DNA from: Bdellovibrionota bacterium
Lineage (GTDB): Bacteria > Bdellovibrionota > UBA1018 > UBA923
Length of the DNA stretch: 23,538 nucleotides
Direction of reading: 5' to 3'
Assembly (NCBI GenBank): GCA_040754655.1
Contig: JBFMCE010000063.1
Location: 1-23,538 of the forward strand
Made by a program: the position numbers and the translations under genes. How positions within the stretch are numbered: position 1 is the stretch's first letter; every line of letters begins with the position of its first letter. Shown here piece by piece: positions 73 through 23,538 of the stretch. The notes below the pieces were generated by a model. It was not told where the DNA came from, made no database searches, and saw only the letters and a program-made list of their open reading frames with translations.

Positions 73-105
73 AAAGGCCCCGGAAAGAAAATTTCCAGGG
101 CCTTT
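73..105 (-). terminator. Probable intrinsic terminator downstream of the lipoprotein array
   Basis: Inverted repeat AAAGGCCC-C-GGAAA (73-86) / TTTCC-A-GGGCCTTT (92-105). The mismatch becomes a G-U pair on the minus strand and is followed by GCTTTT. It lies 37 nt after the stop of 143..1174. Confidence 0.75.
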
Positions 106-142: not shown

Positions 143-1174
143 TTACTCCACGAGCTCAAGTTGCTCTACGAAAACACCAGGAATGCTTGCATCCACTTTG
201 CCAGTCGGGCGGTACTGAGGCTCTGGCTGCTCAAGAGATGCGGCATCAGACGCAGTTTTCGAGTGGCGGAACAACAAAAGTCTGTTCTTTTCTTTACCTG
301 CGGAAGAGGTCTTAACAACAGAAGAAGTCTCGGCCTGAGTTGGCGTCACCGTTTGTTCAAGGTCCGCGCTGACCGAAGAAGTCTTCCCCTTATCCGGAAA
401 AGAAATTGAAACACCTTCCGGGACCACATCTACCTGGCCTTTGGGACCCGAGTTGTATTTCTCTAGAAGCTTCTCAATCACCTGGCTCTCTTTGAATCCA
501 AGCAGATCACGAAATGCAACGGCCTTTTCGATCAAGGCGCGCACGTTTTCGATGCTGCCGCGAGGCGTGGGCTCAGAAGCGCAAGCCTTTCGAATCTGTT
601 TCACATGCTTATGGATCTCTCCGGCCAGGTTGCTTGCTCTTTCGCAGCGAGCACCGGGTTCTTCACCCTCGATTTCGATTTCAAAACATTGTTTTTCAAC
701 ATCTAACCACAAAGCATTGTCAGTGGACTCGTTTGAAAAGCTCAGTGCATTGGCCAACTGACACCCTTGATCTTGGAGATAGTGGTAAAAACCGCAAACC
801 CGGTCTTTCGTCAGATGCAAGATCTCAGAAGCGATCGCACCTTCTTCTTCTTCGTGTATGCCTCTAGCGATGTCGTAGGATTGAGCATTGAGTTGGTATT
901 CAAAAATAGTAGCGACTTGGGCGATCTGAGCGGATGGGCTCTGACCTTGAATATCGCTTCTCATCGATTCATCGACGAACATCCTTCCAAGCACGAGATT
1001 CTTTCGAACCTCCGCCGCGTCAAGCGTTTGAGCTGACGCCGAAGATTGGCCTTCAGACGATCCGCCGCCCGACGCTTTCGTGGCGCCATCGTCTTTCTTC
1101 GCGCATGCAGCCAACGCGATCACAGCCACTAAAGAAAATCCTGAGACAAAACGGAACATCGCTTTCGTATTCAT
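143..1174 (-). CDS. Hypothetical lipoprotein, 4-Cys paralog 1 (343 aa)
   Basis: RBS TAGGAG; signal peptide with lipobox LAAC; S/G-rich linker; motif YHYLQDQGC...C...C...QIRKAC...RGS shared with the three neighbours. Confidence 0.85.
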   Translation of the reverse strand: MNTKAMFRFVSGFSLVAVIALAACAKKDDGATKASGGGSSEGQSSASAQTLDAAEVRKNLVLGRMFVDESMRSDIQGQSPSAQIAQVATIFEYQLNAQSYDIARGIHEEEEGAIASEILHLTKDRVCGFYHYLQDQGCQLANALSFSNESTDNALWLDVEKQCFEIEIEGEEPGARCERASNLAGEIHKHVKQIRKACASEPTPRGSIENVRALIEKAVAFRDLLGFKESQVIEKLLEKYNSGPKGQVDVVPEGVSISFPDKGKTSSVSADLEQTVTPTQAETSSVVKTSSAGKEKNRLLLFRHSKTASDAASLEQPEPQYRPTGKVDASIPGVFVEQLELVE

Positions 1175-1206
1175 AACGACTCCTATGTTAAATCGCAGGC
1201 GATAAG

Positions 1207-1222
1207 AGCACGAAGCATGCCA
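1207..1222 (-). promoter_or_regulatory. Sigma-54 (RpoN) -24/-12 promoter
   Basis: Minus strand reads TGGCATGCTTCGTGCT, which fits GG-N10-GC and the TGGCAC-N5-TTGC consensus. It is 32 nt upstream of the ATG at 1174. Confidence 0.75.
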
Positions 1223-1328
1223 TAAATTAAAACTCTTTAATTTCAGTCAGTCGCGTCCAACGGTCCCAATCCGTCAGACCACTGAAGTATCTAACGCTTT
1301 GCGTGTCGTACAATCCTTAGACACTTTT

Positions 1329-2216
1329 TCACTGGGGTAGCGTACCAAAAAGCCAGTCCAAGTAAGGAGAAAGCCAGTTATCACGGTCGGCGCCTTGTTC
1401 GGAATCGCCTTCATCCGCCATATCACTGTGGGGAATGATCTCGGTAGTGGGCTCGGCGCCTTCAGTAAAACGGACCCTTCGAATGACCTCAGGGACGGGC
1501 CGGATCACGGCGAAGTCTTTTGCCCCCGTTGGGCGCTCAAATTCCATTTGATCAAATCTGATTTTCTTTTCGACAAGAGAGCTCTCAATCAAGCCGAGAT
1601 GTTCGATAAGTCGGCGAGCGAGCCCTTGGCTTCCTCGTTGTTCCTGTTCGCAGAAACGGTCAATTTGGCCAGCGAATGAGTAGGCTTCAAGAATGAGCGC
1701 CGTAAAATCGCGGCAATCCTTTAGTTCGTGCTTTTGGCAGACCAAGGCGACATCCCCCGCTAGCTCTTCCATTGCAAGCGAGGGACGGTCTGAAAATACC
1801 GTCTTTAGACATTGGGTTGCAAGCCAGCAACCTCCATCAAACTTGTAAAAGTAGCCGTTCTTCCCTAAGTTTTTGGCAAACTGACGCTCTTCCTCCAAAG
1901 TTCTTTTCGTGAGCTGCACGGAGAAGGCCCATCCTAAACGCCCCAAGCCTTTGACAATTTCAATGGCTCTTGAAGCGTCTTGAGACGATGCCTCGAACGC
2001 ATCTTCTTCCGCAACGAGCTGTTCTTCGCGCTCGTCACTAGATGGGTCACTTGCTTCCGCTGGCGAAGCTAGTTGCTCGATTTGCGAAACATTGCCCTGC
2101 TCGGGTCGATACTTCGCCCTAGCCTGCTCGTCCTGCTTAGAGCAAGCCATGCACAATAAGAACGCCACTGCCGGCACGATAACCGGGACTACAGCTCTAC
2201 CCGACTTCAAACCCAT
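1329..2216 (-). CDS. Hypothetical lipoprotein, 4-Cys paralog 2 (295 aa)
   Basis: Hydrophobic N-terminus ending in CMAC; motif YFYKFDGGC...C-x7-C-x20-C...RGS; starts 12 nt after the paralog 3 stop. Confidence 0.82.
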   Translation of the reverse strand: MGLKSGRAVVPVIVPAVAFLLCMACSKQDEQARAKYRPEQGNVSQIEQLASPAEASDPSSDEREEQLVAEEDAFEASSQDASRAIEIVKGLGRLGWAFSVQLTKRTLEEERQFAKNLGKNGYFYKFDGGCWLATQCLKTVFSDRPSLAMEELAGDVALVCQKHELKDCRDFTALILEAYSFAGQIDRFCEQEQRGSQGLARRLIEHLGLIESSLVEKKIRFDQMEFERPTGAKDFAVIRPVPEVIRRVRFTEGAEPTTEIIPHSDMADEGDSEQGADRDNWLSPYLDWLFGTLPQ

Positions 2217-2228
2217 GAACTTGGTTTC

Positions 2229-3245
2229 TTAAAAGTCGCGCAGATTGCCGCGCACGGGTCCTGTTTCTGCAGCATTTTGCTCAGATTGGCTTTCCTTCGA
2301 GCCAGAAGTGAATTTTGACGAGAACCAACTTTTGAATCTTTCCCAAATTCGCTCTTCCGGACCTTCAACCACGATCTGGCCACGTTTCTGGGGTTCGATA
2401 GGCACCGACAACCGGCGAGCCATTTTAGGCGAAACTGTTCCGATCTTAGGTTCTGTTTCGTCTTGAACAGGCGAACTCTTTAGAATTGGTTTTGCCACGA
2501 TCGAAGACAGAGGCATGACCTTAGGCCCTTCCTGAGAATCATCGATTTTAGGGGCCAAGGCTGCGGCCTCGCTCTCACCCGTAAGCGCAAAGTTTACCTG
2601 TACATCTTTGCTGGACGCCTCTTCCAAGGGAAGCGCTCTTTCACTTTTCTCGATGACAAAGCCCTGGTTCACGATTTCGTTGTACTGGCTGGACAAGCGG
2701 ATGATGCGTTCGCTGACGAGTTGTGAGCCTCTCTTGTTGTTGGTGCTTCCGCAAACAAAGTCATGTTGACGGACAAGCCTTTCGACTTCATTTCCGAGCT
2801 CAACAGCGAGAGAACAGTCTTCAATTTGCCTTATTTTGCACAATGCTTGGGTGCTTTGAGCCATCGAAAGCTCATTACCCACGCCAGTCAGCGCCTCTAA
2901 AAACTGGGTGGTGAGCTCACACCCCCCATCATCTTTATAATAATACTGGTTTTCTCCGCGAAGTTCCTGAGTCTTCTCTTCGCTCAATCCAAGCTGTCCT
3001 TGAAACCGAGCGCCGAGCTGAGCAATTGAGCCCGCGGGAACCGCGTTTGAAGCAGTCTGTTCATCTACTTCCGGAAGCTGTTCTGAGTCTTCGGGACCAT
3101 CGATCGGTGTTGAGCTGGCTTTAGTTTTTCCAGAGGAATTTGCGTCCTTTTGGACACTTTTTTCGCTTTTTGCGCAAGATGCGAGCATCGCGCTCACCAC
3201 AAGCAATCCAAGGACACTTCGAAGCGTATTCACATTCTTTTTCAT
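2229..3245 (-). CDS. Hypothetical lipoprotein, 4-Cys paralog 3 (338 aa)
   Basis: MKK N-terminus with lipobox LASC; RBS-like AGGT; motif YYYKDDGGC...C-x7-C-x20-C...RGS. Confidence 0.85.
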   Translation of the reverse strand: MKKNVNTLRSVLGLLVVSAMLASCAKSEKSVQKDANSSGKTKASSTPIDGPEDSEQLPEVDEQTASNAVPAGSIAQLGARFQGQLGLSEEKTQELRGENQYYYKDDGGCELTTQFLEALTGVGNELSMAQSTQALCKIRQIEDCSLAVELGNEVERLVRQHDFVCGSTNNKRGSQLVSERIIRLSSQYNEIVNQGFVIEKSERALPLEEASSKDVQVNFALTGESEAAALAPKIDDSQEGPKVMPLSSIVAKPILKSSPVQDETEPKIGTVSPKMARRLSVPIEPQKRGQIVVEGPEERIWERFKSWFSSKFTSGSKESQSEQNAAETGPVRGNLRDF

Positions 3246-3257
3246 ACGTTTACCTAC

Positions 3258-4121
3258 CTACCTTTGATTTCCAGACTCACACCATTCAATTTTTTGATCG
3301 TCTTGCATGGTGTGTACTTCAAGACCACCTGTCGAATCTGAAACTGTTTCCGGCGCAGTGCATATCAGACTTTCTGAGGAAACAGAAGCAGCAGATTCCT
3401 TTGAATTTTTGTCTTCGCACATGTTCGCAGATCCCTGAGGAGCCTCGCACATCTGCGTTTTGTGATTCACGTGAATTTTCTCACCGGCGGTTTCGCCTTG
3501 GTTCTGAGCCGAATCAGAACCCGCGGCGATGGCGATGTCTTTTTGCTCAAACAAACTTGCAGGCAATTCGACTGCCGAAAGACCCACTGATTTGCGATAA
3601 TCAACCATCGACTGGATCAATTGCGCCAAGAAGACCTCACCCTTTGTTTGGCTTTGAACGCAAGACGACTCAAGCTGCCTTGCCGCGATCTTCATCGTTT
3701 GCAAGACGTCCTTAGCCTGATCAATGCAGGAACCTATGCCTCGCACAAGGCAATCGGCTTCGGTGCTTTGAAAAATATTGATGACCTTTTGCTCGGCGCC
3801 CACGCTCTTGCGTTTATCGAGAAGATCCAAAGTTTTCTTTGAAAGCAAGCACCCATGATCGTAATGCACATCGGGCAGCTCATCTGACGGAGGCACTAAA
3901 CCTGCGGCCTGTTTGCTCGACTCGTCCGCGAGTTCCGCCAATTCTTTTGCATAAGAGGCTGCTTCGATCACCTCTTCACTTGGAGTAGATCGGCCCGAGC
4001 TCTTTTGTTCGTTTGAGTTCAACCTGCCATGGTGCTCAGAATTGTCTTCAGGGCCGCAAGCGCTCATCAAAAGCGCCGCTGCCAGCACAAAACAAAGATT
4101 TGAGACGAACCGGTACTGCAT
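3258..4121 (-). CDS. Hypothetical lipoprotein, 4-Cys paralog 4 (287 aa; start corrected to MQYRFV at 4121)
   Basis: ATG at 4121 follows GGAAGGAAAGT and opens a lipoprotein signal ending in MSAC. The longer ORF-track start at 4229 would run through the sigma-54 promoter. Motif HYDHGC...C-x7-C-x21-C...KG. Confidence 0.82.
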   Translation of the reverse strand: MQYRFVSNLCFVLAAALLMSACGPEDNSEHHGRLNSNEQKSSGRSTPSEEVIEAASYAKELAELADESSKQAAGLVPPSDELPDVHYDHGCLLSKKTLDLLDKRKSVGAEQKVINIFQSTEADCLVRGIGSCIDQAKDVLQTMKIAARQLESSCVQSQTKGEVFLAQLIQSMVDYRKSVGLSAVELPASLFEQKDIAIAAGSDSAQNQGETAGEKIHVNHKTQMCEAPQGSANMCEDKNSKESAASVSSESLICTAPETVSDSTGGLEVHTMQDDQKIEWCESGNQR

Positions 4122-4144: not shown

Positions 4145-4160
4145 AGCATGAAGCATGCCA
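4145..4160 (-). promoter_or_regulatory. Sigma-54 (RpoN) -24/-12 promoter for lipoprotein paralogs 4-3-2
   Basis: Minus strand reads TGGCATGCTTCATGCT (GG-N10-GC), 15/16 identical to the element at 1207-1222. It is 23 nt upstream of the ATG at 4121. Confidence 0.75.
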
Positions 4161-4296: not shown

Positions 4297-5856
4297 TCAG
4301 TGCCTGAAGTGGCGTTTTCCGGTGAAGACCATCGCAACGCCCAGTTTATCGCAAGTTGCTACGACTTCTGGATCGCGGATGCTGCCACCGGGCTGAACGA
4401 TGTATCTCAGGCCAGCGGCATGAGCCTCTTCAACATTGTCGCCGAACGGGAAAAATGCGTCGCTCACAAGCACGCACTCTGAAAGGACTTTCTGCGCATC
4501 GAGGCCTTGCGCGCTCAAAGCTTCCCGTGCTTTGGGAACGGCGAGGCGTCGAATCGCATCTACTCGGTTGGGTTGGCCTGAGCCCATGCCCACAAGTTGG
4601 AACCCTCCGTCTGGAAGCATGCGAACAATTGCAATCGCATTGGACTTGATCCACTTGGCAGCCACGACGCCGAAGCGCGCTACTCCCGCCAGATGGTCAG
4701 GAAACTTTGTTTGAGTCGCCGTTTTGAACTCTTCTTTCAATCCTTCATCGGGATGCTGAACGAGGTATCCGCCTTCGACCCTCATCCTTTGCATCTCATA
4801 CGAAGTTTCAAAACTTGCGATTTTGATCACGCGAAGTTTCTTTTTCTTGCGACGTAAAACCTCGATTGCGCCGTCTTCAAAACCTGGAGCAAGCACAACT
4901 TCAACGAATTTTTCTTCGAAAAGACGCGCGCACTCAAGCGTGAGCATCGAGGAAAACGCGACCACTCCTCCGAAGGCGCTCACCGGATCGCCTGCCCATG
5001 CTCGCAAGAAGGCTTCATCTATCGTGGGTGCGGTTGCAAGACCGCAAGGATTATTGTGTTTCACGATCGCACAAGCTCCGTGTCCGCCTGATGTCAGCTC
5101 TCTTGCATCACGCACGGCACCGAGTGCGGCCTGCGCATCCAAAATATTATTGTAAGAAAGATCCAGACCCGCGGGTTCGAGCAACTGCCATTCCATCGAA
5201 ACTTTTCCGAAGTCAGGTACAAAATAGGCAGGTTGGTGAGGATTTTCGCCGTATCTTAAAGGGCGCTTTGCAAATGCCTCATAGATCGACTGGTCATACC
5301 GCAAAACACGCTCAAATGCCTTTACCGCAAGTCTCCTTCGGGTCTCAAAGCTGATGCATCCGCCAAGGCTTCTAAGCTCAGTCATGAACTCAGCATAGTC
5401 TGAAGGGTCTGTGAGCACGACAACGCTATGATGGTTCTTCGCCGCCGCTCGCACCATCGTTGGCCCACCGATATCTACTTCATGAATAAGATCGGCCTCA
5501 CTTGAACCTTTTGAAACCGCTTCTTCAAATGGATAAAAATTGCAAACCACCAGGTCGATGGGTTCAATGCCCAGATCTTTTGCTTGCTCGACGTGAGTTG
5601 AGTTCGCACGATCGTACAAGAGAGCGCTTTCGAGCTTGAAACTCAAGGTTTTCATCCGGCCATCAAAAGCTTCAGGATTGCCCGTGAAGTCTTCAATAGG
5701 GCGAAACTTGATTGCACTGCGACGCAGGCGATCCGCCGTGCCACCTGTCGCGATGAACTCAATGCCAAACCCAGTGAGACTCTTTGCCAATTCCTCAAGA
5801 TATGTTTTGTCTGAAACGCTAAATAAAGCGCGTTGGATTCGAACTGCACCTGTCAT
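4297..5856 (-). CDS. purH: Bifunctional IMP cyclohydrolase / AICAR transformylase
   Basis: Motifs RALFSVSDK, ATGGTA, GRMKTL, DIGGPTMVRAAAKN, LRYGENPHQ, SYNNILD, KHNNPCG, SDAFFPF, QPGGSIRD, FTGKRHFRH. The start may be 5856 (MTGAVRI) or 5886. Confidence 0.97.
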   Translation of the reverse strand: MTGAVRIQRALFSVSDKTYLEELAKSLTGFGIEFIATGGTADRLRRSAIKFRPIEDFTGNPEAFDGRMKTLSFKLESALLYDRANSTHVEQAKDLGIEPIDLVVCNFYPFEEAVSKGSSEADLIHEVDIGGPTMVRAAAKNHHSVVVLTDPSDYAEFMTELRSLGGCISFETRRRLAVKAFERVLRYDQSIYEAFAKRPLRYGENPHQPAYFVPDFGKVSMEWQLLEPAGLDLSYNNILDAQAALGAVRDARELTSGGHGACAIVKHNNPCGLATAPTIDEAFLRAWAGDPVSAFGGVVAFSSMLTLECARLFEEKFVEVVLAPGFEDGAIEVLRRKKKKLRVIKIASFETSYEMQRMRVEGGYLVQHPDEGLKEEFKTATQTKFPDHLAGVARFGVVAAKWIKSNAIAIVRMLPDGGFQLVGMGSGQPNRVDAIRRLAVPKAREALSAQGLDAQKVLSECVLVSDAFFPFGDNVEEAHAAGLRYIVQPGGSIRDPEVVATCDKLGVAMVFTGKRHFRH

Positions 5857-5951
5857 TTGGGACGTACTTTTCCATGATTTCTGCATTTGCTCAATGGGAG
5901 AGTATTGGACTTTAAAACTCTGCTTGTTTTAAGTTGATCACTTTGCTATGA

Positions 5952-6014: not shown

Positions 6015-8477
6015 GTGCGTTTTAAGCCATTGACCCTTACCAAGAACTTAATTTTCATCAATGTGCTGTTGGTTTTTGGTTTAGCCACTGTGATCGCCGT
6101 GACTGCCGCCGAAGCAAATGAGCCTTCCGAGAACCAATTCAAGGTTCTCAAAGAACAGGCACTAAACGTAAAGGCGCGCGTTCCACAAGAAGATCTTGAT
6201 GAGACGCTGCGAAACGGGACCAAGGTTTTTCAGCTCAACCTGGGGTCTCGAACCCTTTATTTGTATGCAGATCCTAAAAAAATCCAAGCAATGATCAGTC
6301 GCATTCAACGCTCAAAAGAGCTTGCACCCTTAGAGTCGGTCGATCTGGTCAACATGCTTTTGGCTATGACGACTCAAACAACACTTTCGTCCGCCCAAAC
6401 CGGACAGCCCAAAGGTGAGTTGATCACGTGGTCATCTGCTGCAAACCAAAGCGGCAGTGGACTTTCGTTTAGAGACTATTTGGAAGGAAAGACCACAACT
6501 GTCATTTCACCGCAGCCGCCCGTTGCCACCGAAACTAGCGCAATAACGGTGCCTGAGAAGACCGCAACTGAGACCGCAGCGCTTGAAACAAGTTCTCGCC
6601 CTGCCAAGGAATATACTTTTGAAATCCCGATGCAGGGAAGAAAGAATATCGTTTTAATCGGGACGCCGGATGAGATGCTTGATCAACTTTCAAAGCACGC
6701 CGAAAAAACGATAGAAGCTCTGCAAAAACACCCATCGCCGTACGCTGACGAAGGCAAGCAACCAAAACTTCGTTTTGATTTGAGCCAAGTTCAATCTGCG
6801 CTTACGGTGCGAATAGGCAAAGCGTATCTAGAATTTATCGAGTCTAGAAAAGAACTGGAACGAAAAACGAACCCAATCAAATGGAGAAGGCCTCGCACAG
6901 AAACCGAGTCTTGGGCGATCGCGCTGAGCGAATGGTTTGCGGGAAAAGGATTGGGAGAGCAGTACCAAGCCCTCAAAACAAAGGTAGACCACGCTGTTGC
7001 CACAATGTGGGAGACTAGACAGCAAATTGCCGGCACTCCTACCACTGCTCTTGGAGTAACGACGAGTGTGGCTAAGCTCGCGGCTGAAAAGCTCGCCCCA
7101 CGACAAACCTCTGCAGGTGCCGCTGAAGCCAAGATAGAGCGTCGCGCTAACTCTGATGAAACAAGATTAGAAAATGCGGTGGCTAAAGAAACAAGCTTCC
7201 CCAGCGTAGAAAAAACACCTGAGGCCACCAGTGGTTTTGAACTCAATCCATCAAAAGGATCGAGATTCGCATTTTATGCAAAAAACAGCACCCCTTCCTC
7301 CAGTTTTTCGCTGCACGCCGCTTTAGAGCCGATTCTTAGTTACCTTGAATCTGTCGACGGCCCACAAAGTGTTCGAGAAGTTCTAGAGCTTCAGGCCCCT
7401 AAGTATCAGGTGTCCACAGTGGAAGAAGGCAAGAGTCCCATCGTTTCATGGAGAAAGCCAAGAGACTCAGCTTCGCCTGCGCCACCTAGCATTTGGACTC
7501 TACGCGAATGGATAGAAGAGCGCGCCCGCAATGATAAAGCTCTTTTGGCCCGTTATCATGCATTAAAAGCGAAAACCCTTGCTGACTCTACTGTCACGAG
7601 CCCAATTGCTGTAACCCTAGAGGTTGTCCCAGCGACAACCCTTCCTTTCGTGCCGATGCCAGTTTCGCCTACTAAACCAGTCACCGCGCAAACGTCACAA
7701 CGGCAGGCGAGCCTTCCAAGAACCAAAGAAATAGATACTCAAGTTTTATCTCCATACCAAAGCCCTTTGGCGGACCTCACGCAAAACGGGAGGTGGGGTT
7801 CCGACCATTACGAACGCGATTGGAATAGAATAGCCCCAAGACCTTGGAGCGACGAGGTTCATGAGACACGGGCACGCTCCCTGTTCGCCGAGCAGGCAAT
7901 TCTTCCGGAGTTCCTTGAAGCCGACGAAACCGATATAGAGGATACGGGAAGAAAACGACGGAACCCTATTCGCCGTCCTATAGACAGCCAAACCCAAAGC
8001 GTCGCAGCTGTCGCAAACGATAGACCTCATTTTATTGAAGCAGTGGCTACGCATGTGAATCCGCCATCACCACGAGCGCCGGCAAATCCGACGCAAGCAG
8101 AGGCGGAATGGCAGCCTACCGTAAGCCAAGAAGAGGTGATTGAGCGCCTTCAAGCATTTGAGCGTCAGCTTCAGCCCCTTGAAGCAAGACTGGGCCTGGT
8201 AGGAAATCGCATCGATTCTCTTGCCAGAGATCTTGAAGCACTCAAAGATTTCTACGACCGCTCAAGAAGCTTTGAATGGCTTCTTAAGAATGACAGAACC
8301 GACTCGACCGCGCGGATGATCAATCGAATCAATAGGATCAAACACCATTTTCTTGCTGAAGCCGAGGTATTTGTCTTTAATGGAAAACCGGATCCCTATT
8401 GGAATGAGAAATTGCGCTGGGAGTTTTCGGCCGCGGGCATGAGGCGTTTCAAATGCGCGCTTTTGCTCTCGCGCTGA
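6015..8477 (+). CDS. Hypothetical secreted protein (820 aa) with diverged internal repeats and a C-terminal coiled coil
   Basis: Long ORF with GTG start after GAGAGG; Sec-type signal peptide (..VTAAEA-NE); T/S/P/A-rich linkers; heptad region VIERLQAFERQLQPLEARL; single Cys near the C-terminus. Confidence 0.85.
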   Translation: MRFKPLTLTKNLIFINVLLVFGLATVIAVTAAEANEPSENQFKVLKEQALNVKARVPQEDLDETLRNGTKVFQLNLGSRTLYLYADPKKIQAMISRIQRSKELAPLESVDLVNMLLAMTTQTTLSSAQTGQPKGELITWSSAANQSGSGLSFRDYLEGKTTTVISPQPPVATETSAITVPEKTATETAALETSSRPAKEYTFEIPMQGRKNIVLIGTPDEMLDQLSKHAEKTIEALQKHPSPYADEGKQPKLRFDLSQVQSALTVRIGKAYLEFIESRKELERKTNPIKWRRPRTETESWAIALSEWFAGKGLGEQYQALKTKVDHAVATMWETRQQIAGTPTTALGVTTSVAKLAAEKLAPRQTSAGAAEAKIERRANSDETRLENAVAKETSFPSVEKTPEATSGFELNPSKGSRFAFYAKNSTPSSSFSLHAALEPILSYLESVDGPQSVREVLELQAPKYQVSTVEEGKSPIVSWRKPRDSASPAPPSIWTLREWIEERARNDKALLARYHALKAKTLADSTVTSPIAVTLEVVPATTLPFVPMPVSPTKPVTAQTSQRQASLPRTKEIDTQVLSPYQSPLADLTQNGRWGSDHYERDWNRIAPRPWSDEVHETRARSLFAEQAILPEFLEADETDIEDTGRKRRNPIRRPIDSQTQSVAAVANDRPHFIEAVATHVNPPSPRAPANPTQAEAEWQPTVSQEEVIERLQAFERQLQPLEARLGLVGNRIDSLARDLEALKDFYDRSRSFEWLLKNDRTDSTARMINRINRIKHHFLAEAEVFVFNGKPDPYWNEKLRWEFSAAGMRRFKCALLLSR

Positions 8478-16939: not shown

Positions 16940-17156
16940 TCGCTAGTATGGGTGGAGCGAAGATAATAACTGCTATTCCAGACCGGCCTGTCCTCTCTTG
17001 CTTACTGAGAAGCTGATCGGCTGGCAGCACCTAAAAAATCTTAGCGATCCGCCAAACCTTCAAGATCAATTCTTCCAGGCTGAAGCTCTTATGAATGATT
17101 GCGATTCAAACACCTGGCGGATGAAATCAAAGGAGAAAAGCATGCCTTGAAAAAAA

Positions 17157-17172
17157 TTGACACGTCGGTCAA
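17157..17172. promoter_or_regulatory. Inverted repeat overlapping a perfect -35 hexamer upstream of the peptidase
   Basis: TTGAC-ACGTCG-GTCAA. It begins with TTGACA and is preceded by an A-tract. Confidence 0.4.
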
Positions 17173-17254
17173 GGCTGGTTTACTCGATTATCCGAAATGT
17201 TGGGTTGGGGCTCAACATTTATGGGGAAGTCATTCAAGGGGGAGTTCAATCACG

Positions 17255-18859
17255 ATGCACGGTCTCATCCGTTTTCGTCTCGCTTTAGGGCTAGCCGCTA
17301 GTCTCATATTTTCATTCCATACGGCTCACGCCAACGATTCTAAAAACTCGGTAAAATCAGCGCGCTACAAGTGCGCTTCGCTCCTCACCAACGCCATCCC
17401 ACTCTCGTGGGTCAAGAAAATGGCTGAAGAAGGCAAGGCCCATGACCCTCAAGTCAAAAGACTGCGCGACAATGTGCAACGCAATGGTTTTGAAAACACG
17501 GCGCTGAACGCAGACATCTTGAAGTCGCACTCAGACAATTACACCCTGGAACTTTTTCAAGGGCCCATTACTGACCAGCAACGCTCGGGGCGTTGTTGGA
17601 TCTTCGCCGGCCTCAACATGATTCGTTCACAGATGATCGCGGAAGGAAAAGTACCCGAAAACTTCGAGTTCTCAGAGAACTACCTTCACTTCTTCAACAT
17701 GCTCGAGAAGTCAAACAGGTACCTCGAAGAGATCATCGAGCAGACCTCAGTCAACTCCGTGGCAAAAAAATTGAAGATTCCGGGCGAAACCAGGGGAGAA
17801 GGCTTGAGCAGCATCTTCGAACCCCAAATCAGCGATGGCGGCTGGTATGAATACTTCATGTTCCTGGTTTCGAAATACGGGCTTATGCCGAAAGAGGCGA
17901 TGCCCGAAACTCGCAGCGCCCTGAACACAGATGCTCTTCTCACCGAACTGAAGAAATACTTGGCCTCAACGGCTGCTGAGATGCTGGTCGCAATCAATGA
18001 GTTCGAAAGCAAGGCCCCGAAGAGGATGGGCAAGAAAAAGAAAGAAGAAAAACTGACTGAGCTCTTGCGGCCGATCAAAGAACGCGGGATGCAGGGGGTG
18101 TGGAAGGTTTTGGCCACCCACCTTGGCGACCCACCGACGCGATTTGATTATCGGATGACCGGAAAATCCGAGCGACGCGGGCTGATCAGGGTAAACCCGA
18201 CACAAGTCGTAACCACGACGCCAAAGATCTTCGCGCGTAAGTTCATTCAGTTTAATCCTGACGATTACGTGCCAGTGACGACGTATTCGCAACTTGATCC
18301 GGGAATTGTTTATGAAATCCCAGAGAGCGCCATCGGACCGTCGACCTCAAAGAACCATCCTTACAATCTTCGCTTCTTGAACGTCGATATCTCGCGCTTG
18401 GAACACCTCGCGGTAAACGCGATCGAGGGCGGCCAGGCGGTTTGGTTTGCCGCAGACATTGGAATTGATGTCTTCAATACGGCCGGAATCATGCACCCCA
18501 AGCTTTTTGAACGAGATTCGATCTACAACTTGAGTGAGACCGAACGCATGGCATCCCTACCTCGGCCGCTTCGCACTTATTTTGGTCTGGCCTCACCCAA
18601 CCACGCGATGCTTTTGACGGGGCTTGATCGCCCAGACCCGAAAGGACCTGTGGTGAAATTCAAGAACGAAAACTCGTGGGGCAAACAAGTGGGAAGCCAG
18701 GGCATTTACCATCTCTACCGCGAATGGTTCCAAGAGTATGTGTTTCAAATCATCGTGCACAAGCGGTTCCTCACCGAGAGAGAACGCAAAGCATGGGGTT
18801 CTGAAGCCGCAGAGGTGCCTGCCGAAGCTGACCTCGCTGATGGCGTGAGACAAGATTAA
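17255..18859 (+). CDS. Secreted C1B-family cysteine peptidase (aminopeptidase C / bleomycin hydrolase-like; start corrected to 17255, 534 aa)
   Basis: ITDQQRSGRCWIFAGLN (oxyanion Gln, catalytic Cys), FEFSENYL, DGGWY, KYGLMPK, HAMLLTG (His), ENSWG (Asn). ATG at 17255 follows GGGGAG and opens a signal peptide ending in AHA. Confidence 0.92.
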   Translation: MHGLIRFRLALGLAASLIFSFHTAHANDSKNSVKSARYKCASLLTNAIPLSWVKKMAEEGKAHDPQVKRLRDNVQRNGFENTALNADILKSHSDNYTLELFQGPITDQQRSGRCWIFAGLNMIRSQMIAEGKVPENFEFSENYLHFFNMLEKSNRYLEEIIEQTSVNSVAKKLKIPGETRGEGLSSIFEPQISDGGWYEYFMFLVSKYGLMPKEAMPETRSALNTDALLTELKKYLASTAAEMLVAINEFESKAPKRMGKKKKEEKLTELLRPIKERGMQGVWKVLATHLGDPPTRFDYRMTGKSERRGLIRVNPTQVVTTTPKIFARKFIQFNPDDYVPVTTYSQLDPGIVYEIPESAIGPSTSKNHPYNLRFLNVDISRLEHLAVNAIEGGQAVWFAADIGIDVFNTAGIMHPKLFERDSIYNLSETERMASLPRPLRTYFGLASPNHAMLLTGLDRPDPKGPVVKFKNENSWGKQVGSQGIYHLYREWFQEYVFQIIVHKRFLTERERKAWGSEAAEVPAEADLADGVRQD

Positions 18860-18923: not shown

Positions 18924-20150
18924 TTACTGCGGCTCACCGACGGTGGCAGTAACCGCAGTCGCTGTCTTAGATAAATCTTTGGTAGCGGTGCCGGCTTCGA
19001 CCAAATCTAGCCCGACTGTTGCGCTCTTGGTCGCCGTTTCTGCGCGATCAGCCTCAACCGCAGCTGAGCTCGATTGAGTAGCGCTGCTTGACAGCGTGCC
19101 GGCGAGCGTTTCGGCTTGGCACTCTTGTCTGATTTTCTCTGCAGCTTTTGCTTCATAGCGGTTGATCGCGTGGTACAACTCGTTTGAGTTCGCAAAGAAG
19201 CCAAACGTTCTTGTGCCTGCTTGAACTTTTGGCGCGATCTTATTAATGTCTTCTAGAATCGGCTCGGCGTCTTCAGACAAATCAAGGCCTGAAGCGATCG
19301 AGTAAGTAGGTGCATTGAGATCACCTGCAGGAAAGCCTGACTTTGCATTGCCAGCCGTGGTCACCAAGAGGATCTTGCCACCTTGAAGGTAGATGCGATC
19401 TTCGATTTTTCCTGGATAAGCGTCACTCTTTAAGAACAGCAGGAAGTCGCGTGGCATTGCTTCGCCTAGTGTGCCAGGTTGAGCGTCTTTGCTAAGGTTT
19501 TGTACCTTGTCACGCATCTCGTGTTCGAATTCTTCCATCTCAGCTTCGACTTTATTCTTAGACTCCTCCAAGGTTTTTACTGTAGCTTTGAGATTTTCAA
19601 GATCAGTTACCCACTTTGCGCGTTCTTTTATTTTTTTATCTGCTTTGTTTGGATCAACGTTTTCGTGTCTTGCCTGAAGTTCATCGACCTCATCAAGAAC
19701 CTTTAAGATTCCTTCTCCACCTTTAACCGCTTTCTGGCCTAACGAAAGCGCCCGCCGGGCTTTATCGAGCCGCTCGGCAATCTCGAAGTAACCAACCTGA
19801 TATAATTCGGCCGTAATTCTATGAAAAGGCAGACTAAACCTCTTGAACCTTTCCTTTTGTGCCTTCAGGTGAGAAAACTGCGTGTCTTGGACCTGTCCAA
19901 AAGCAGATTCGCCGTCTTTATAGGCCAGGTGAATCGCAAGTTCGAGATCTTCGATTCTTTCTGAGAGCTTTTGGGTCTTGTCTTCAATACAGGCGATTTG
20001 GCTCGCATCAAGAAGGCCTGAGTTTTTCTCATCGAAAAGACTGGGGCCGGCGTCTCCGACAGCGGGCGCCGCGACCTGAGGCTCTGAGGCCCACGCCTGA
20101 AAGGCACTCGTGAATAAAACAAAGCTTGTTATCGAAATGAGATTGATCAT
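18924..20150 (-). CDS. Hypothetical secreted coiled-coil protein (408 aa)
   Basis: RBS AAGGGAG; signal peptide ending in AWA; long K/E-rich heptads; two Cys bracketing the core; A/T-rich tail. Confidence 0.85.
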   Translation of the reverse strand: MINLISITSFVLFTSAFQAWASEPQVAAPAVGDAGPSLFDEKNSGLLDASQIACIEDKTQKLSERIEDLELAIHLAYKDGESAFGQVQDTQFSHLKAQKERFKRFSLPFHRITAELYQVGYFEIAERLDKARRALSLGQKAVKGGEGILKVLDEVDELQARHENVDPNKADKKIKERAKWVTDLENLKATVKTLEESKNKVEAEMEEFEHEMRDKVQNLSKDAQPGTLGEAMPRDFLLFLKSDAYPGKIEDRIYLQGGKILLVTTAGNAKSGFPAGDLNAPTYSIASGLDLSEDAEPILEDINKIAPKVQAGTRTFGFFANSNELYHAINRYEAKAAEKIRQECQAETLAGTLSSSATQSSSAAVEADRAETATKSATVGLDLVEAGTATKDLSKTATAVTATVGEPQ

Positions 20151-20356: not shown

Positions 20357-21211
20357 ATGAAACCCACCTCTATTCCCTTCACCAAACTGCACGGCCTCGG
20401 CAATGATTTCGTGCTGATCGATTTGCGCGAACAAAAACTCTCGCTCACGTCGAGCACCATCCGCGCAATCGCAGATCGAAAAAGAGGCGTTGGGTTTGAT
20501 CAACTTCTCGTGCTCAAACGCTCATCGCGGGTGCATGCGGAACTTGAGATTTTCAATGCCGATGCCTCTCTTGCTGAGATGTGCGGCAATGGCCTAAGAG
20601 CAGCGGCGTTTTATCTGTGGACTCAAGGTAAACTCAGAAGCCACGAGACGCTCACTCTTGAAACCGCGGCTGGTGACCGGCAGTCGCGCGCGGTAAAAAA
20701 AATCCACCCAAACGACACCGAGGCCGAGATTGAATGCGAAATGGGAGTGCCCAAGATTAAAACGATTCCACGATTGCTCAAGCGCGGAATCAAACTGGGG
20801 ACGAAGACCCATCATCCCGTTCTCGTCGACGTCGGCAACCCTCACGCCGTTTTTTTCACTTGGCCCAAGAACCAGGCGCAGCTTGAACAATGGGGAAGCT
20901 TGGTTGAAAACCACCGCGCGTTTCCCAAACGCACCAATGTTGAGTTTGTGCGCGCCGTAAGCCCGCGCGCAATCGAAGTGCAGGTCTGGGAGAGAGGCGT
21001 CGGCATTACTGAGGCTTGCGGCACCGGTGCTGTAGCGGCGACCTGCGCCACCCTTTCGCAGGGGAAAGGCGTAGGCCCGATGGAAGTGCGTTTTACCGGA
21101 GGAAGAGCCAGCGTGCGTTGGGAGGGCGCGCAGCAGGCAGCGTTCTTGCAGGGATATGCAGCCAGGGTGTTTTGTGGCGAGTGGCTTCTCACTAACCCTC
21201 ATGAACATTGA
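20357..21211 (+). CDS. dapF: Diaminopimelate epimerase
   Basis: FTKLHGLGNDF, GVGFDQ, NADAS-AEMCGNG, VGNPHAV, NVEF, WERGVGITEACGTGA (both catalytic Cys present). Confidence 0.97.
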   Translation: MKPTSIPFTKLHGLGNDFVLIDLREQKLSLTSSTIRAIADRKRGVGFDQLLVLKRSSRVHAELEIFNADASLAEMCGNGLRAAAFYLWTQGKLRSHETLTLETAAGDRQSRAVKKIHPNDTEAEIECEMGVPKIKTIPRLLKRGIKLGTKTHHPVLVDVGNPHAVFFTWPKNQAQLEQWGSLVENHRAFPKRTNVEFVRAVSPRAIEVQVWERGVGITEACGTGAVAATCATLSQGKGVGPMEVRFTGGRASVRWEGAQQAAFLQGYAARVFCGEWLLTNPHEH

Positions 21212-21273
21212 GAAGCCGATTAGTAACCTTTTGTAACCAATTCGCCTTTTATTTACAGAGAGGACGTGAATGC

Positions 21274-21624
21274 ATGAAACCAGCGTTCAGAAGTTTTTCG
21301 GGCCGACTGATCGTGGAACAAAAAGAAAGCCTTTCGCTTCTTGATGCGCGAGATGAAAAGCAGTTCTTAAGCGCAGGCGAGGCTCTTATCGAAATACACA
21401 GTCAAACGATCGTATTGAAAAAAGACAGCAAAGAGTATGTCTTTCACTCACCCGTTCAGACCGATCTCATGAACGATCAGCTTCTTCTGCCCGCCGGGCT
21501 AAATGACCAGCCCCTTTCATTGTCGGGAAGCCTGCAAAACGAGAATCTTTCCCTGGTTTTTGAAAGAGAAGGGCCCTCAGGATCTAGGGCCATTGCTTCT
21601 TTCAAGACCTTGCGACTTCTTTGA
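21274..21624 (+). CDS. Hypothetical protein (about 116 aa; start likely MKPAF at 21274)
   Basis: ATG preceded by GAGAGG; ORF fills the gap up to the convergent gene; beta-strand-like pattern; no family recognised. Confidence 0.65.
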   Translation: MKPAFRSFSGRLIVEQKESLSLLDARDEKQFLSAGEALIEIHSQTIVLKKDSKEYVFHSPVQTDLMNDQLLLPAGLNDQPLSLSGSLQNENLSLVFEREGPSGSRAIASFKTLRLL

Positions 21625-22007: not shown

Positions 22008-22535
22008 ATGGAGCCCGGGCGATTGAGCGCTTGCACTCATTGGATGGTTTGTATTTGGGCCGCGTTGACGGCGTTCTCACCCTCGAGGGCGCTTGCGACC
22101 GATTCTCATCGCGAACGGCCGGCTTCAATCAAGAACATTGAATTGGTGAAGCCCGGGAAGACGTCAGTTTCTGAACTGCGTCAAATCTTGGGAAGCCCTC
22201 GCAGCGTCGTTCGTGAAGGGCCAACGCGCGAGTACTATTTTTTTGATTTAGGCGAAGGAAGCACGATGGATGCAACCATCAGTTTGCGTCGCGGCGTCGT
22301 CGATTACATTAGCTACCTTTGCAGCGAATCTTTGAAAGAAGTGCGTGAAAAGTACGGTGAAAAACCCTCTTCCACGCAAACTCTTCGGTCAAAGGGAATC
22401 GGTTATTACAGAACCTTCAAACAGGCGATTTACGAAGAACAAGGGCGCGGTTTCGTCTATGACTCAAAGAGCCAAAAGGTAAAGGCCTGCCTTGTTTGGA
22501 GGCCGGGTGAAAAGTTCGAGGAACTGGGGAGTTAG
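22008..22535 (+). CDS. Hypothetical exported protein with BamE/SmpA (BLIP-like) signature
   Basis: Signal-like N-terminus (..SRALA); VKPGKTSVSELRQILGSP and a second SLKEVREKYGEKP repeat; two Cys in the mature part. Confidence 0.75.
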   Translation: MEPGRLSACTHWMVCIWAALTAFSPSRALATDSHRERPASIKNIELVKPGKTSVSELRQILGSPRSVVREGPTREYYFFDLGEGSTMDATISLRRGVVDYISYLCSESLKEVREKYGEKPSSTQTLRSKGIGYYRTFKQAIYEEQGRGFVYDSKSQKVKACLVWRPGEKFEELGS

Positions 22536-22656: not shown

Positions 22657-23319
22657 ATGGGTTCTTTAAAAAACAATTCGATTCAATGGGTTCTATTGGC
22701 TTTACTGACCGCGACTCCTGCAGTTGCACATGCGAAGTGCAAGTACTCTACCTTGAGCGCAGCGCAATGCGAAAAGATTAAACGCGTCACTGAAAAATGG
22801 CCCCCAAAAACCGAAATCGCGCGCGTGGATGAAGTTGATCCTGAAACGGGCGCATGCCGGTACAATGCAGATGAGAATAAAGTTGAAGTAGCAGCTGCAG
22901 CGCTTGAAAAATACTCGGAAAACGCTCTTGCACAATGCCTTGCCCGAGCATTCGCCAACGCGAACTACGCAGATGTCGAAGAGCAGTGGGCTAAAGAACT
23001 GGGCGAGCATAAAGCCTGGATCGTTCGCAGGGGCGAGGCCCAGGAAGTCTCGACTGAGGGCAAGAAGCTGGCTGCCGTCTCGGCGCATGCGCTTTGGACC
23101 ACATTTGCCGCTCGTGAGTTGCTGGCACGTTATGAAGGTTTAGTGAATGACGGCGGCCAGGATGTGGCGACGACAAGCGGACGTACTTTGGCTTCGTTAA
23201 ATGATTCTGCTTCTGCTGGCGCCATAGTTGACGCCGAAGCCACACCGGGTGGCGGCGGCACTGGAAAGCCAGAACTTGACGAGGTCGTCAGAGGGCTCTT
23301 GGGAGCTTCGACTCGCTGA
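22657..23319 (+). CDS. Hypothetical secreted protein (220 aa)
   Basis: RBS GAGGTG; signal peptide ending in AHA; four Cys in the N-terminal half; low-complexity tail. Confidence 0.8.
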   Translation: MGSLKNNSIQWVLLALLTATPAVAHAKCKYSTLSAAQCEKIKRVTEKWPPKTEIARVDEVDPETGACRYNADENKVEVAAAALEKYSENALAQCLARAFANANYADVEEQWAKELGEHKAWIVRRGEAQEVSTEGKKLAAVSAHALWTTFAARELLARYEGLVNDGGQDVATTSGRTLASLNDSASAGAIVDAEATPGGGGTGKPELDEVVRGLLGASTR

Positions 23320-23412
23320 GCAATCCAAGCCAAGAGAGCGCCAGTGTGCGAGGTGTATCTTCGCGTTCGCAGCAGCACCGCTTCGTTTTACCGGAATTTC
23401 GTTGCTGAACAC

Positions 23413-23538
23413 TCACAGCAGCAGTGGCACTTTTCTCAACACACCTCTTTCATCAAAGAGAATGAGATCGGTTTGCAGAAGATCGAGCACGCCTGATTTT
23501 ACTGGGTTCTGAAAGATGTAGCGGATGGTGTTGGTAAG
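23413..23538 (-). CDS. 3' end of a probable Y1 HUH transposase (RAYT / IS200-like); partial, runs off the window
   Basis: My translation of the minus strand from 23538 is LTNTIRYIFQNPVKSGVLDLLQTDLILFDERGVLRKVPLLL*. YIxxNPVKxG is the catalytic-Tyr motif of RAYT-type transposases. Only 41 aa are visible. Confidence 0.6.
   Translation of the reverse strand, partial: LTNTIRYIFQNPVKSGVLDLLQTDLILFDERGVLRKVPLLL

Follow-up and report, generated by a model that had tools for sequence, protein, structure and literature searches.

Several kinds of described envelope lipoprotein come close to the genes treated here. Tai/Rap and Tli are periplasmic immunity lipoproteins directed against cell-wall amidases and lipases, and orphan immunity genes occur in arrays. 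The Lipocone proteins form a superfamily in which catalysis needs a His. According to the part of the preprint available to us, this superfamily has a four-helix core, includes members with lipoboxes and members in Bdellovibrionota, and consists of predicted enzymes (bioRxiv 10.1101/2025.01.14.632903). The accessible parts of two further papers describe Borrelia BBK32, FbpA and FbpB as surface lipoproteins with a four-helix bundle that binds the protease C1r (PMC12183334), and CyanoQ as a lipoprotein whose up-down bundle has broken first helices; its helix 2a carries an Asp N-cap and, at its start, a conserved Trp followed by Gly-Pro (PMC4180030). Here we describe a tandem array of diverged lipoprotein genes at one end of contig JBFMCE010000063.1 of an uncultured Bdellovibrionota bacterium (assembly GCA_040754655.1; genome G000, 3.78 Mb in 196 contigs, 90% complete). 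The entire contig (C63, 23,538 nucleotides, nt) was analysed and is termed the window. The lipoprotein family to which the genes belong is real, rare and as yet unnamed; arrangements in which diverged helical lipoproteins stand in tandem are already known. The array in the window comprises:

73..105, minus strand: 14-bp hairpin and short T run after paralog 1, terminator-like by inspection and absent from the terminator-scan list
143..1174, minus strand: paralog 1 (P0001, 343 aa); lipobox Cys24, linker, four-Cys helical domain at residues 77-228 (nt 491-946), tail of 115 residues
1329..2216, minus strand: paralog 2 (P0002, 295 aa); lipobox Cys25, domain at residues 80-217 (nt 1566-1979), 12 bp after paralog 3, without a sigma-54-type site of its own
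2229..3245, minus strand: paralog 3 (P0003, 338 aa); lipobox Cys24, domain at residues 67-195 (nt 2661-3047), 12 bp after paralog 4
3258..4121, minus strand: paralog 4 (P0004, 287 aa); lipobox Cys22, domain at about residues 49-182

The products resemble Tai/Rap and Tli in being small exported proteins with disulfides (here putative), encoded by tandem diverged paralogs of patchy distribution. Unlike them, they have no sequence match to known immunity proteins, no co-directional effector gene, sigma-54-type sites of their own and an insertion site inside a housekeeping gene cluster.

An earlier sequence-only reading had claimed four lipoprotein open reading frames (ORFs) with a lipobox, and all four are indeed present on the minus strand, each with a lipobox-type Cys at residue 22-25. 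The four-cysteine pattern it reported was likewise recovered, with C1-C2 distances of 24, 29, 26 and 32 residues in P0001 to P0004, C2-C3 distances of 13, 7, 7 and 7, and C3-C4 distances of 20, 20, 20 and 21; additional cysteines lie within C1-C2 of P0002 (one), ahead of C1 of P0001 (one) and in the tail of P0004 (four). Used as a search pattern, its motif picks out exactly these four from the 24,250 six-frame ORFs in the genome, and when all ORFs of at least 100 aa were shuffled 20 times it matched none; its Q-x4-C and [RK]G anchors do not hold family-wide, and its domain boundary had to be moved, as the domain begins about 45 residues ahead of the D-x-G-C motif. Pairwise shuffle z for the six pairs was 15.0, 9.2, 4.5, 3.8, 2.6 and 1.2, with P0004 in the three weakest.

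A profile of the four cores led, in a search of the genome, to two more paralogs, P0005 and P0006, at the start of contig C49, and a seventh (P0017) lies alone and unlinked on contig C32. When a profile of six sequences was run against 1.84 billion cluster representatives, 12 matches came back at E<=0.001, namely the six queries and P0010-P0015. Genome searches added P0008 and P0009, one copy each in two genomes of one genus (G004 and G008), and word-based protein searches yielded P0016 as their sole new member. The family thus stands at 16 proteins with 17 domains (seven proteins in G000 and nine outside it), P0010 having two domains in tandem. Rows covering only the signal or linker region were dropped, including 7 of the 16 rows of the class-wide search, and so were hits in G040 (E 0.047), G261 (35 positions, no lipobox), G036 and G012 as non-members. 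At domain level the family is matched in 3 of 10 genomes from the host's taxonomic family and 3 of 127 from its class, with 7, 1 and 1 copies; among the 401 sampled from the phylum, no other taxonomic family gave a match (one 35-position row dropped). A profile built only from eight outside proteins placed the seven G000 paralogs ahead of all others among 24,250 ORFs (E 4.6e-15 to 7.3e-5, with the next hit at 0.02), a test that is partly circular, the outside proteins having come from a profile of six paralogs.

Neither Pfam (no family at E<=1 for the four window proteins; for P0005 and P0006 only one row at E 0.3 and one at E 0.07) nor NCBIfam (weak rows only, best E 0.0036, at most 3 of 14 members per model, lipoprotein models on top) claims these proteins; PADLOC gave no match to the family, and the best match among PDB sequences had E 0.054. 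The idea of an old, diverged helical lipoprotein family with a conserved scaffold, outside the curated families, is borne out. In the ESM Atlas P0003 had no usable feature match, and only structure rows under the bar, while the best score of P0008 (0.84) is a lead only. Each of the 10 proteins looked up forms a cluster by itself, and the sole name recorded is 'hypothetical protein, Deltaproteobacteria bacterium'. Scanning with patterns from two sub-alignments gave no genomic loci for P0010-P0016. In the tree, P0017 groups with P0008, P0009 and P0016 (98/96) and P0005 with P0006 (98/94), whereas 10 of 14 inner branches remain open; a single clade of the six array members is not rejected (approximately unbiased test, p 0.234), nor is it shown. 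In the literature searched, which holds few subscription journals and in which an unnamed family cannot be sought by name, we found described neither the family, nor its insertion site, nor sigma-54 control of such Bdellovibrionota lipoproteins. The words 'lipoprotein', 'paralog' and 'tandem' are absent from the main text of PMC11656739, whose protein-family tables could bear on novelty.

Across the 16 aligned proteins only the Asp at position -3 of C1 and C4 itself are invariant, the other conserved columns being Gly, Cys, Ser, small or hydrophobic, with Arg in 10 and Gln in 9 proteins. There is no conserved His in this alignment, no Trp or Pro column shared by at least 9 of the 16 rows, and no CxxC in the family. 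C1 is present in 15 proteins, C2 in 14, C3 in 14 and C4 in 16. Both C2 and C3 are missing in the same two proteins, P0014 and P0015, which keep C1 and C4, and this co-loss fits the C1-C4 and C2-C3 pairing proposed earlier, the tree leaving unsettled whether the two double losses were independent; in P0013 C1 is replaced and a further Cys stands four residues after C4. Judged from these sequences, C1-C4 and C2-C3 disulfides likely lock the domain. Six paralogs compared have only 18-29% identity in the core, and the net charge of the core spans -16 to +16 in the family as a whole; both observations speak against a single ligand common to all. Together with the lack of a conserved catalytic set, the same low identity and wide charge range suggest that the domain is probably not an enzyme but a scaffold whose binding surfaces vary.

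All 16 proteins match the lipobox pattern with a Cys at residue 19-26, none has Asp at +2, and the linker that follows is 18-60 residues long. In E. coli, lipoproteins without Asp at +2 go to the outer membrane. By that rule, which comes from another lineage than the host, the proteins would be sorted to the outer membrane with the domain in the periplasm. Two details of the tails may be added. The four extra cysteines of P0004 (window 3261-3450, minus strand) sit in short look-alike motifs that no other ORF of the genome shares. The tails of P0003 and P0005 have Trp-containing amphipathic stretches near the C-terminus that resemble membrane-targeting helices; a second membrane anchor was rejected as too weakly supported, such stretches being present in 2 of 16 proteins as against 9 of 115 lipoprotein-like ORFs of the genome (both included).

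The core of P0003 was modelled with high confidence from a 14-row alignment (predicted local distance difference test, pLDDT, 92.4; predicted template modelling score 0.87) and is all helical. Mature P0004, the most divergent member, gave the same helix order with a small hairpin insert, pLDDT per block of ten residues being 84-97 in the domain and 42-57 in the tail. In both models the second helix is broken and begins at the invariant Asp-x-Gly-Cys; C1 opens helix 2, a short hairpin loop lies between C2 and C3, and helix 3 ends with C4. The models thus predict an up-down four-helix bundle, a common fold, between a linker and a tail that are predicted to be disordered. Foldseek returned nothing at E<=0.001 in the PDB (best 0.14) or among viral models (best 0.40). 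In a wide structural search, where the bar for helical bundles lies at about Z 13, the top chain for both was 9grx_6, matched over its residues 93-198 for P0003 (Z 7.7, root-mean-square deviation (rmsd) 3.5, 103 aligned) and over its residues 89-198 for P0004 (Z 9.5, rmsd 3.4, 106 aligned), in each case below that bar. Because the same chain leads over the same range for both models, the P0003 and P0004 folds appear to superimpose, which is indirect evidence. Photosynthetic-complex chains fill six of the seven top rows for P0004, including CyanoQ (3zsu, Z 8.0) and PsbQ (1nze, Z 7.9), but an unrelated catenin scores Z 8.2, only 1.3 below the best row of PsbQ type, and identity of the matches is 7-14%. 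We therefore regard the PsbQ type as a lead for the predicted fold, below significance.

Measured against CyanoQ, PsbQ and the PsbQ-like NDH subunits (PF05757; 3zsu, 1nze, 9grx), the family shares the lipobox, the flexible linker and a predicted up-down bundle with a broken second helix. It differs in its four conserved Cys and its tandem array, and the Trp and Gly-Pro given for CyanoQ in the accessible part of its description are not conserved here; PsbQ models gave no match for the six paralogs in Pfam (E<=1), for 14 members in NCBIfam (E<=0.1) or in the genome (E<=1). Structural likeness to Borrelia BBK32/Fbp is in the background range (Z 6.1, rmsd 4.9, 118 aligned; Z 5.6, rmsd 5.0, 114 aligned), with no sequence match, and the host-complement target is irrelevant here. 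With Lipocone, as described in the part of the preprint at hand, the predicted four-helix core is shared, but the conserved His is lacking and no Lipocone Pfam model matches. The structure searches brought up generic helical bundles only, and no solved immunity protein is among the 50 structural rows shown, an absence that excludes nothing. A predicted complex of the P0003 and P0002 cores scored 0.00 in two runs, which counts neither way.

On C63 the gene order is purF-purC-purD-purN-purL-purQ-(820-aa ORF)-purH, followed by the array, which the contig end truncates; paralogs 5 and 6 lie on C49 ahead of purM. The pur genes were named by recognition of their sequences, without a family scan. The features that frame the array are:

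Window 4297..5886, minus strand: purH, upstream flank of the array insertion
C49:111-1073 and C49:1106-1819: paralogs 5 and 6, ahead of purM
C49:1942-3024: purM, behind paralogs 5 and 6

Both purH and purM were found in 7 of 9 related genomes of the taxonomic family, on the same contig and strand in 7 of 7, and the gap between the matched stretches is 3-162 bp in six relatives and 1,031 bp in G008. Because purH and purM are neighbours in all seven relatives and here flank both contig ends, C63 (reversed) and C49 are likely adjacent, the array likely continues past the end of C63, and an array of six or more genes was likely inserted between purH and purM. Against a demonstrated join, the comparison of contig ends found no overlap between C63 and C49; a purH scan of genome contigs reached distant organisms only and gave no synteny. 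In G008 the purH-purM interval holds an ORF (L031:3268-4206) for a 312-aa exported protein that resembles an outer-membrane barrel, and the site has thus probably taken up unrelated envelope genes more than once. Since GC content and codon use of the seven paralog genes match the genome (codon adaptation percentiles 12-54 of 1,321 long ORFs), the expansion is not recent, and recent horizontal acquisition, also considered, finds no support in the codon adaptation of the seven genes. Further along the same cluster, the 820-aa ORF (window 6015-8477, plus strand) has a hydrophobic N-terminus and lies between purQ and purH on the opposite strand. It has no Pfam or NCBIfam match and stands at the 9th percentile of codon adaptation; purQ and purH are adjacent in G003 and G004 without it.

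A feature that the sequence-only reading had not noted is a 16-nt repeat, found by repeat search ahead of P0001 and P0004, whose coding strand has the GG-N10-GC form of sigma-54 promoters. Scored against the 11 bases of the sigma-54 -24/-12 consensus, the two sites in the window are:

1208..1222, minus strand: sigma-54-type -24/-12 site (GG-N10-GC) matching 9 of the 11 bases, 33 nt ahead of the paralog 1 start
4146..4160, minus strand: sigma-54-type -24/-12 site matching 9 of the 11 bases, 24 nt ahead of the ATG at 4121

The second site supports the ATG at 4121 over a longer TTG frame and, by its position, likely drives paralogs 4-3-2. Sites ahead of P0017, P0008 and P0009 have 10, 11 and 11 of the 11 bases and lie 39, 27 and 25 nt before the start, so that five of the six leading genes of the family, in two genera, have one, against a genome background of 3.0%. 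P0005 reaches 7 of 11 without the GG, and no site precedes P0002, P0003 or P0006, which follow closely on the gene before them (best 6-7 of 11). Genome-wide the motif lies 12-50 nt ahead of 56 of 1,847 leading genes (3.0%), compared with 5 in antisense, 2 in coding DNA, a mean of 2.7 in shuffled sequence, and 2 and 3 where the spacing was wrong. The motif is therefore a real feature of this genome. Among lipoprotein-like leading genes 13 of 91 have it, three family genes included. Three of the four leading family genes of G000 carry a site, for which the binomial p is 1e-4 if the genome rate is taken and 0.010 with that of lipoprotein genes, with the test made after the motif was seen, the two relatives counting as one genus and the gene calls crude. 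The host encodes one sigma-54 DNA-binding domain (rpoN) and 22 activator matches, 18 of them at E <1e-55. From these sites the family is likely transcribed from sigma-54 promoters. The candidate regulon of 56 genes is rich in exported proteins and lipoproteins, and it includes genes which, named by eye, resemble fliL, flgF/G, lpxC and general-stress genes.

How might such a set of proteins work? In the reading we favour, a sigma-54 activator would switch on separate units (paralogs 4-3-2; paralog 1; possibly 5-6; and the lone C32 gene), and the products would be exported, lipidated and oxidised at C1-C4 and C2-C3. The modules would likely face the periplasm, where the linker would let the bundle reach off the membrane. 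Tandem duplication between purH and purM would then have supplied copies whose surfaces diverged on a fixed core, each toward another partner. Up to this point, a switchable set of variable binders is what we consider the probable account. The patchy distribution and the lineage-specific expansion (7, 1 and 1 copies, and the two-domain P0010) argue for a changing outside partner rather than a fixed machine. The last step is the weak one: the partners may be hydrolases, either the cell's own in transit or those of prey or rivals. Each lipid-anchored, non-enzymatic four-helix module would then act like an immunity protein or inhibitor, binding and blocking one envelope-attacking enzyme, a different one for each module, a proposal we put forward tentatively, as possible and somewhat short of probable. 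The patchy expansion and the periplasmic placement expected from outer-membrane sorting are the reasons for favouring it. The only hint among neighbours toward a hydrolase is in G004 and G008, where the single family gene and a CHAP/NlpC-like gene (Pfam CHAP, E 7.7e-5 and 5e-4, below cut-off) stand tail-to-tail.

Several observations weigh against this proposal. That neighbour is convergent and not co-transcribed, represents one event in one genus, and has a homolog on C19 of G000 with no family member beside it; the lone C32 copy, nearest relative of the single copies, has other neighbours. No hydrolase or toxin gene adjoins the array, whose flanks are purH and purM with the contig gap unseen. 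A sheath gene of the type VI secretion system (T6SS) was not found in the 90% complete genome, and immunity or defence families gave no sequence match in Pfam, NCBIfam or PADLOC. Sigma-54 sites of their own would be no less expected of a regulated programme than of standing immunity, and the predatory lifestyle of the host is itself something we infer. The boldest form of the proposal, in which an uncultured predatory lineage holds a sigma-54-switched, antibody-like repertoire of disulfide-locked lipoproteins, tandem-expanded on a PsbQ/CyanoQ-type scaffold outside photosynthesis and neutralising enzymes of prey or rivals during attack, is quite doubtful. If true, it would be a predator counter-defence array, which we have not found described in the literature searched.

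Other accounts put the same observations to different use. Each lipoprotein may instead dock on, stabilise or tune a complex of the cell's own envelope (flagellar, pilus, gliding or secretion) under the same sigma-54 programme, much as CyanoQ does with its complex. PsbQ-family chains do come out on top for both models, genes resembling fliL and flgF/G have the promoter motif, and the accessible text on CyanoQ includes its authors' proposal that surface changes redirect the fold to other complexes (PMC4180030). Yet the Z scores fall below the bar, the best of them only 1.3 above the catenin, identity is low and no PsbQ profile matches, and a partner in a core machine predicts presence throughout the taxonomic family, whereas 7 of 9 related genomes have no match (three of the seven are 71-89% complete); we hold this to be a less likely possibility. 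Somewhat unlikely, too, is display on the cell surface as variable binders for prey recognition, adhesion or phage decoy. A likely disulfide-locked core that varies strongly in sequence and charge, the length and low complexity of linkers and tails, predator markers in the genome and the enrichment of sigma-54-type sites ahead of lipoprotein genes (13 of 91, against 56 of 1,847) would all suit it. The domain, however, is a lone small one that lacks any stalk or fibre, surface exposure would have to be assumed, and in the part of PMC3627812 consulted the attack-phase promoters of B. bacteriovorus have a FliA motif (92 of 140) rather than a sigma-54 one.

An Asp that never varies and a neighbouring Cys that almost never does, both where a helix begins, together with the promoter motif ahead of several genes that by eye look like general-stress genes, might suggest periplasmic stress proteins that use the D-x-G-C Cys for thiol redox or metal binding, or act as chaperones. 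This we judge improbable: the family has neither CxxC nor conserved His, the replacement of C1 in P0013 with a further Cys after C4 is what a structural disulfide would show, and seven divergent copies are left unexplained. The sequence-only reading had also offered subunits of a hetero-oligomeric envelope complex as a role. Paralogs 4-3-2, 12 bp apart and likely co-transcribed, and the fusion of two domains in P0010 agree with obligate subunits of one such complex, but two relatives with a single copy, the unlinked seventh copy, at least two promoter-like sites within the array and the hairpin after paralog 1 weaken the idea to the point of being very improbable.

Returning to the set of variable binders, it touches on the means by which predatory bacteria shield their envelope, or identify prey, while the cells are in contact. 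Many envelope proteins of predators belong to no family. For the one defined here there are now a confident model, a putative map of the disulfides, a likely insertion site and a regulatory signal that is conserved; the family is rare, its fold common and its host uncultured.

The host is likely predatory, judging from its gene content. About 6.5 kb from the array end, behind addB/addA-like genes on C49, lies a gliding cluster of myxobacterial type (L009:8352-14442). It encodes an outer-membrane barrel (TIGR04565, above cut-off), a protein matching the GltC model (E 2e-32, below cut-off) and a large tetratricopeptide repeat protein. The genome further has four TIGR02147 genes, six flagellin-domain matches, an HMG-CoA reductase and two TadE matches that fall under the cut-off column and are marked as passing, all of which, with gliding, we take to be Bdellovibrionota-like markers; Flp pilin and T6SS VipB gave no match in the 90% complete genome. 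The C19 homolog of the CHAP/NlpC-like neighbour occupies C19:21483-23084 (32% over 312 residues, E 2e-41).

In the remainder of the window, a Peptidase C1-like protein (PF03051, E 5.6e-77) is encoded at 17099-18859 on the plus strand, with an N-terminal extension that is possibly a signal. Four ORFs (18924-20150, minus strand; 21208-21624, 22008-22535 and 22657-23319, plus strand) have no family above cut-off in Pfam or NCBIfam, and three of them have signal-like N-termini. Finally, the contig end at about 23390-23538 shares a repeat of 126-149 nt (81-98% identity) with C106, C48, C2, C80 and C10, possibly a mobile or repeated element.

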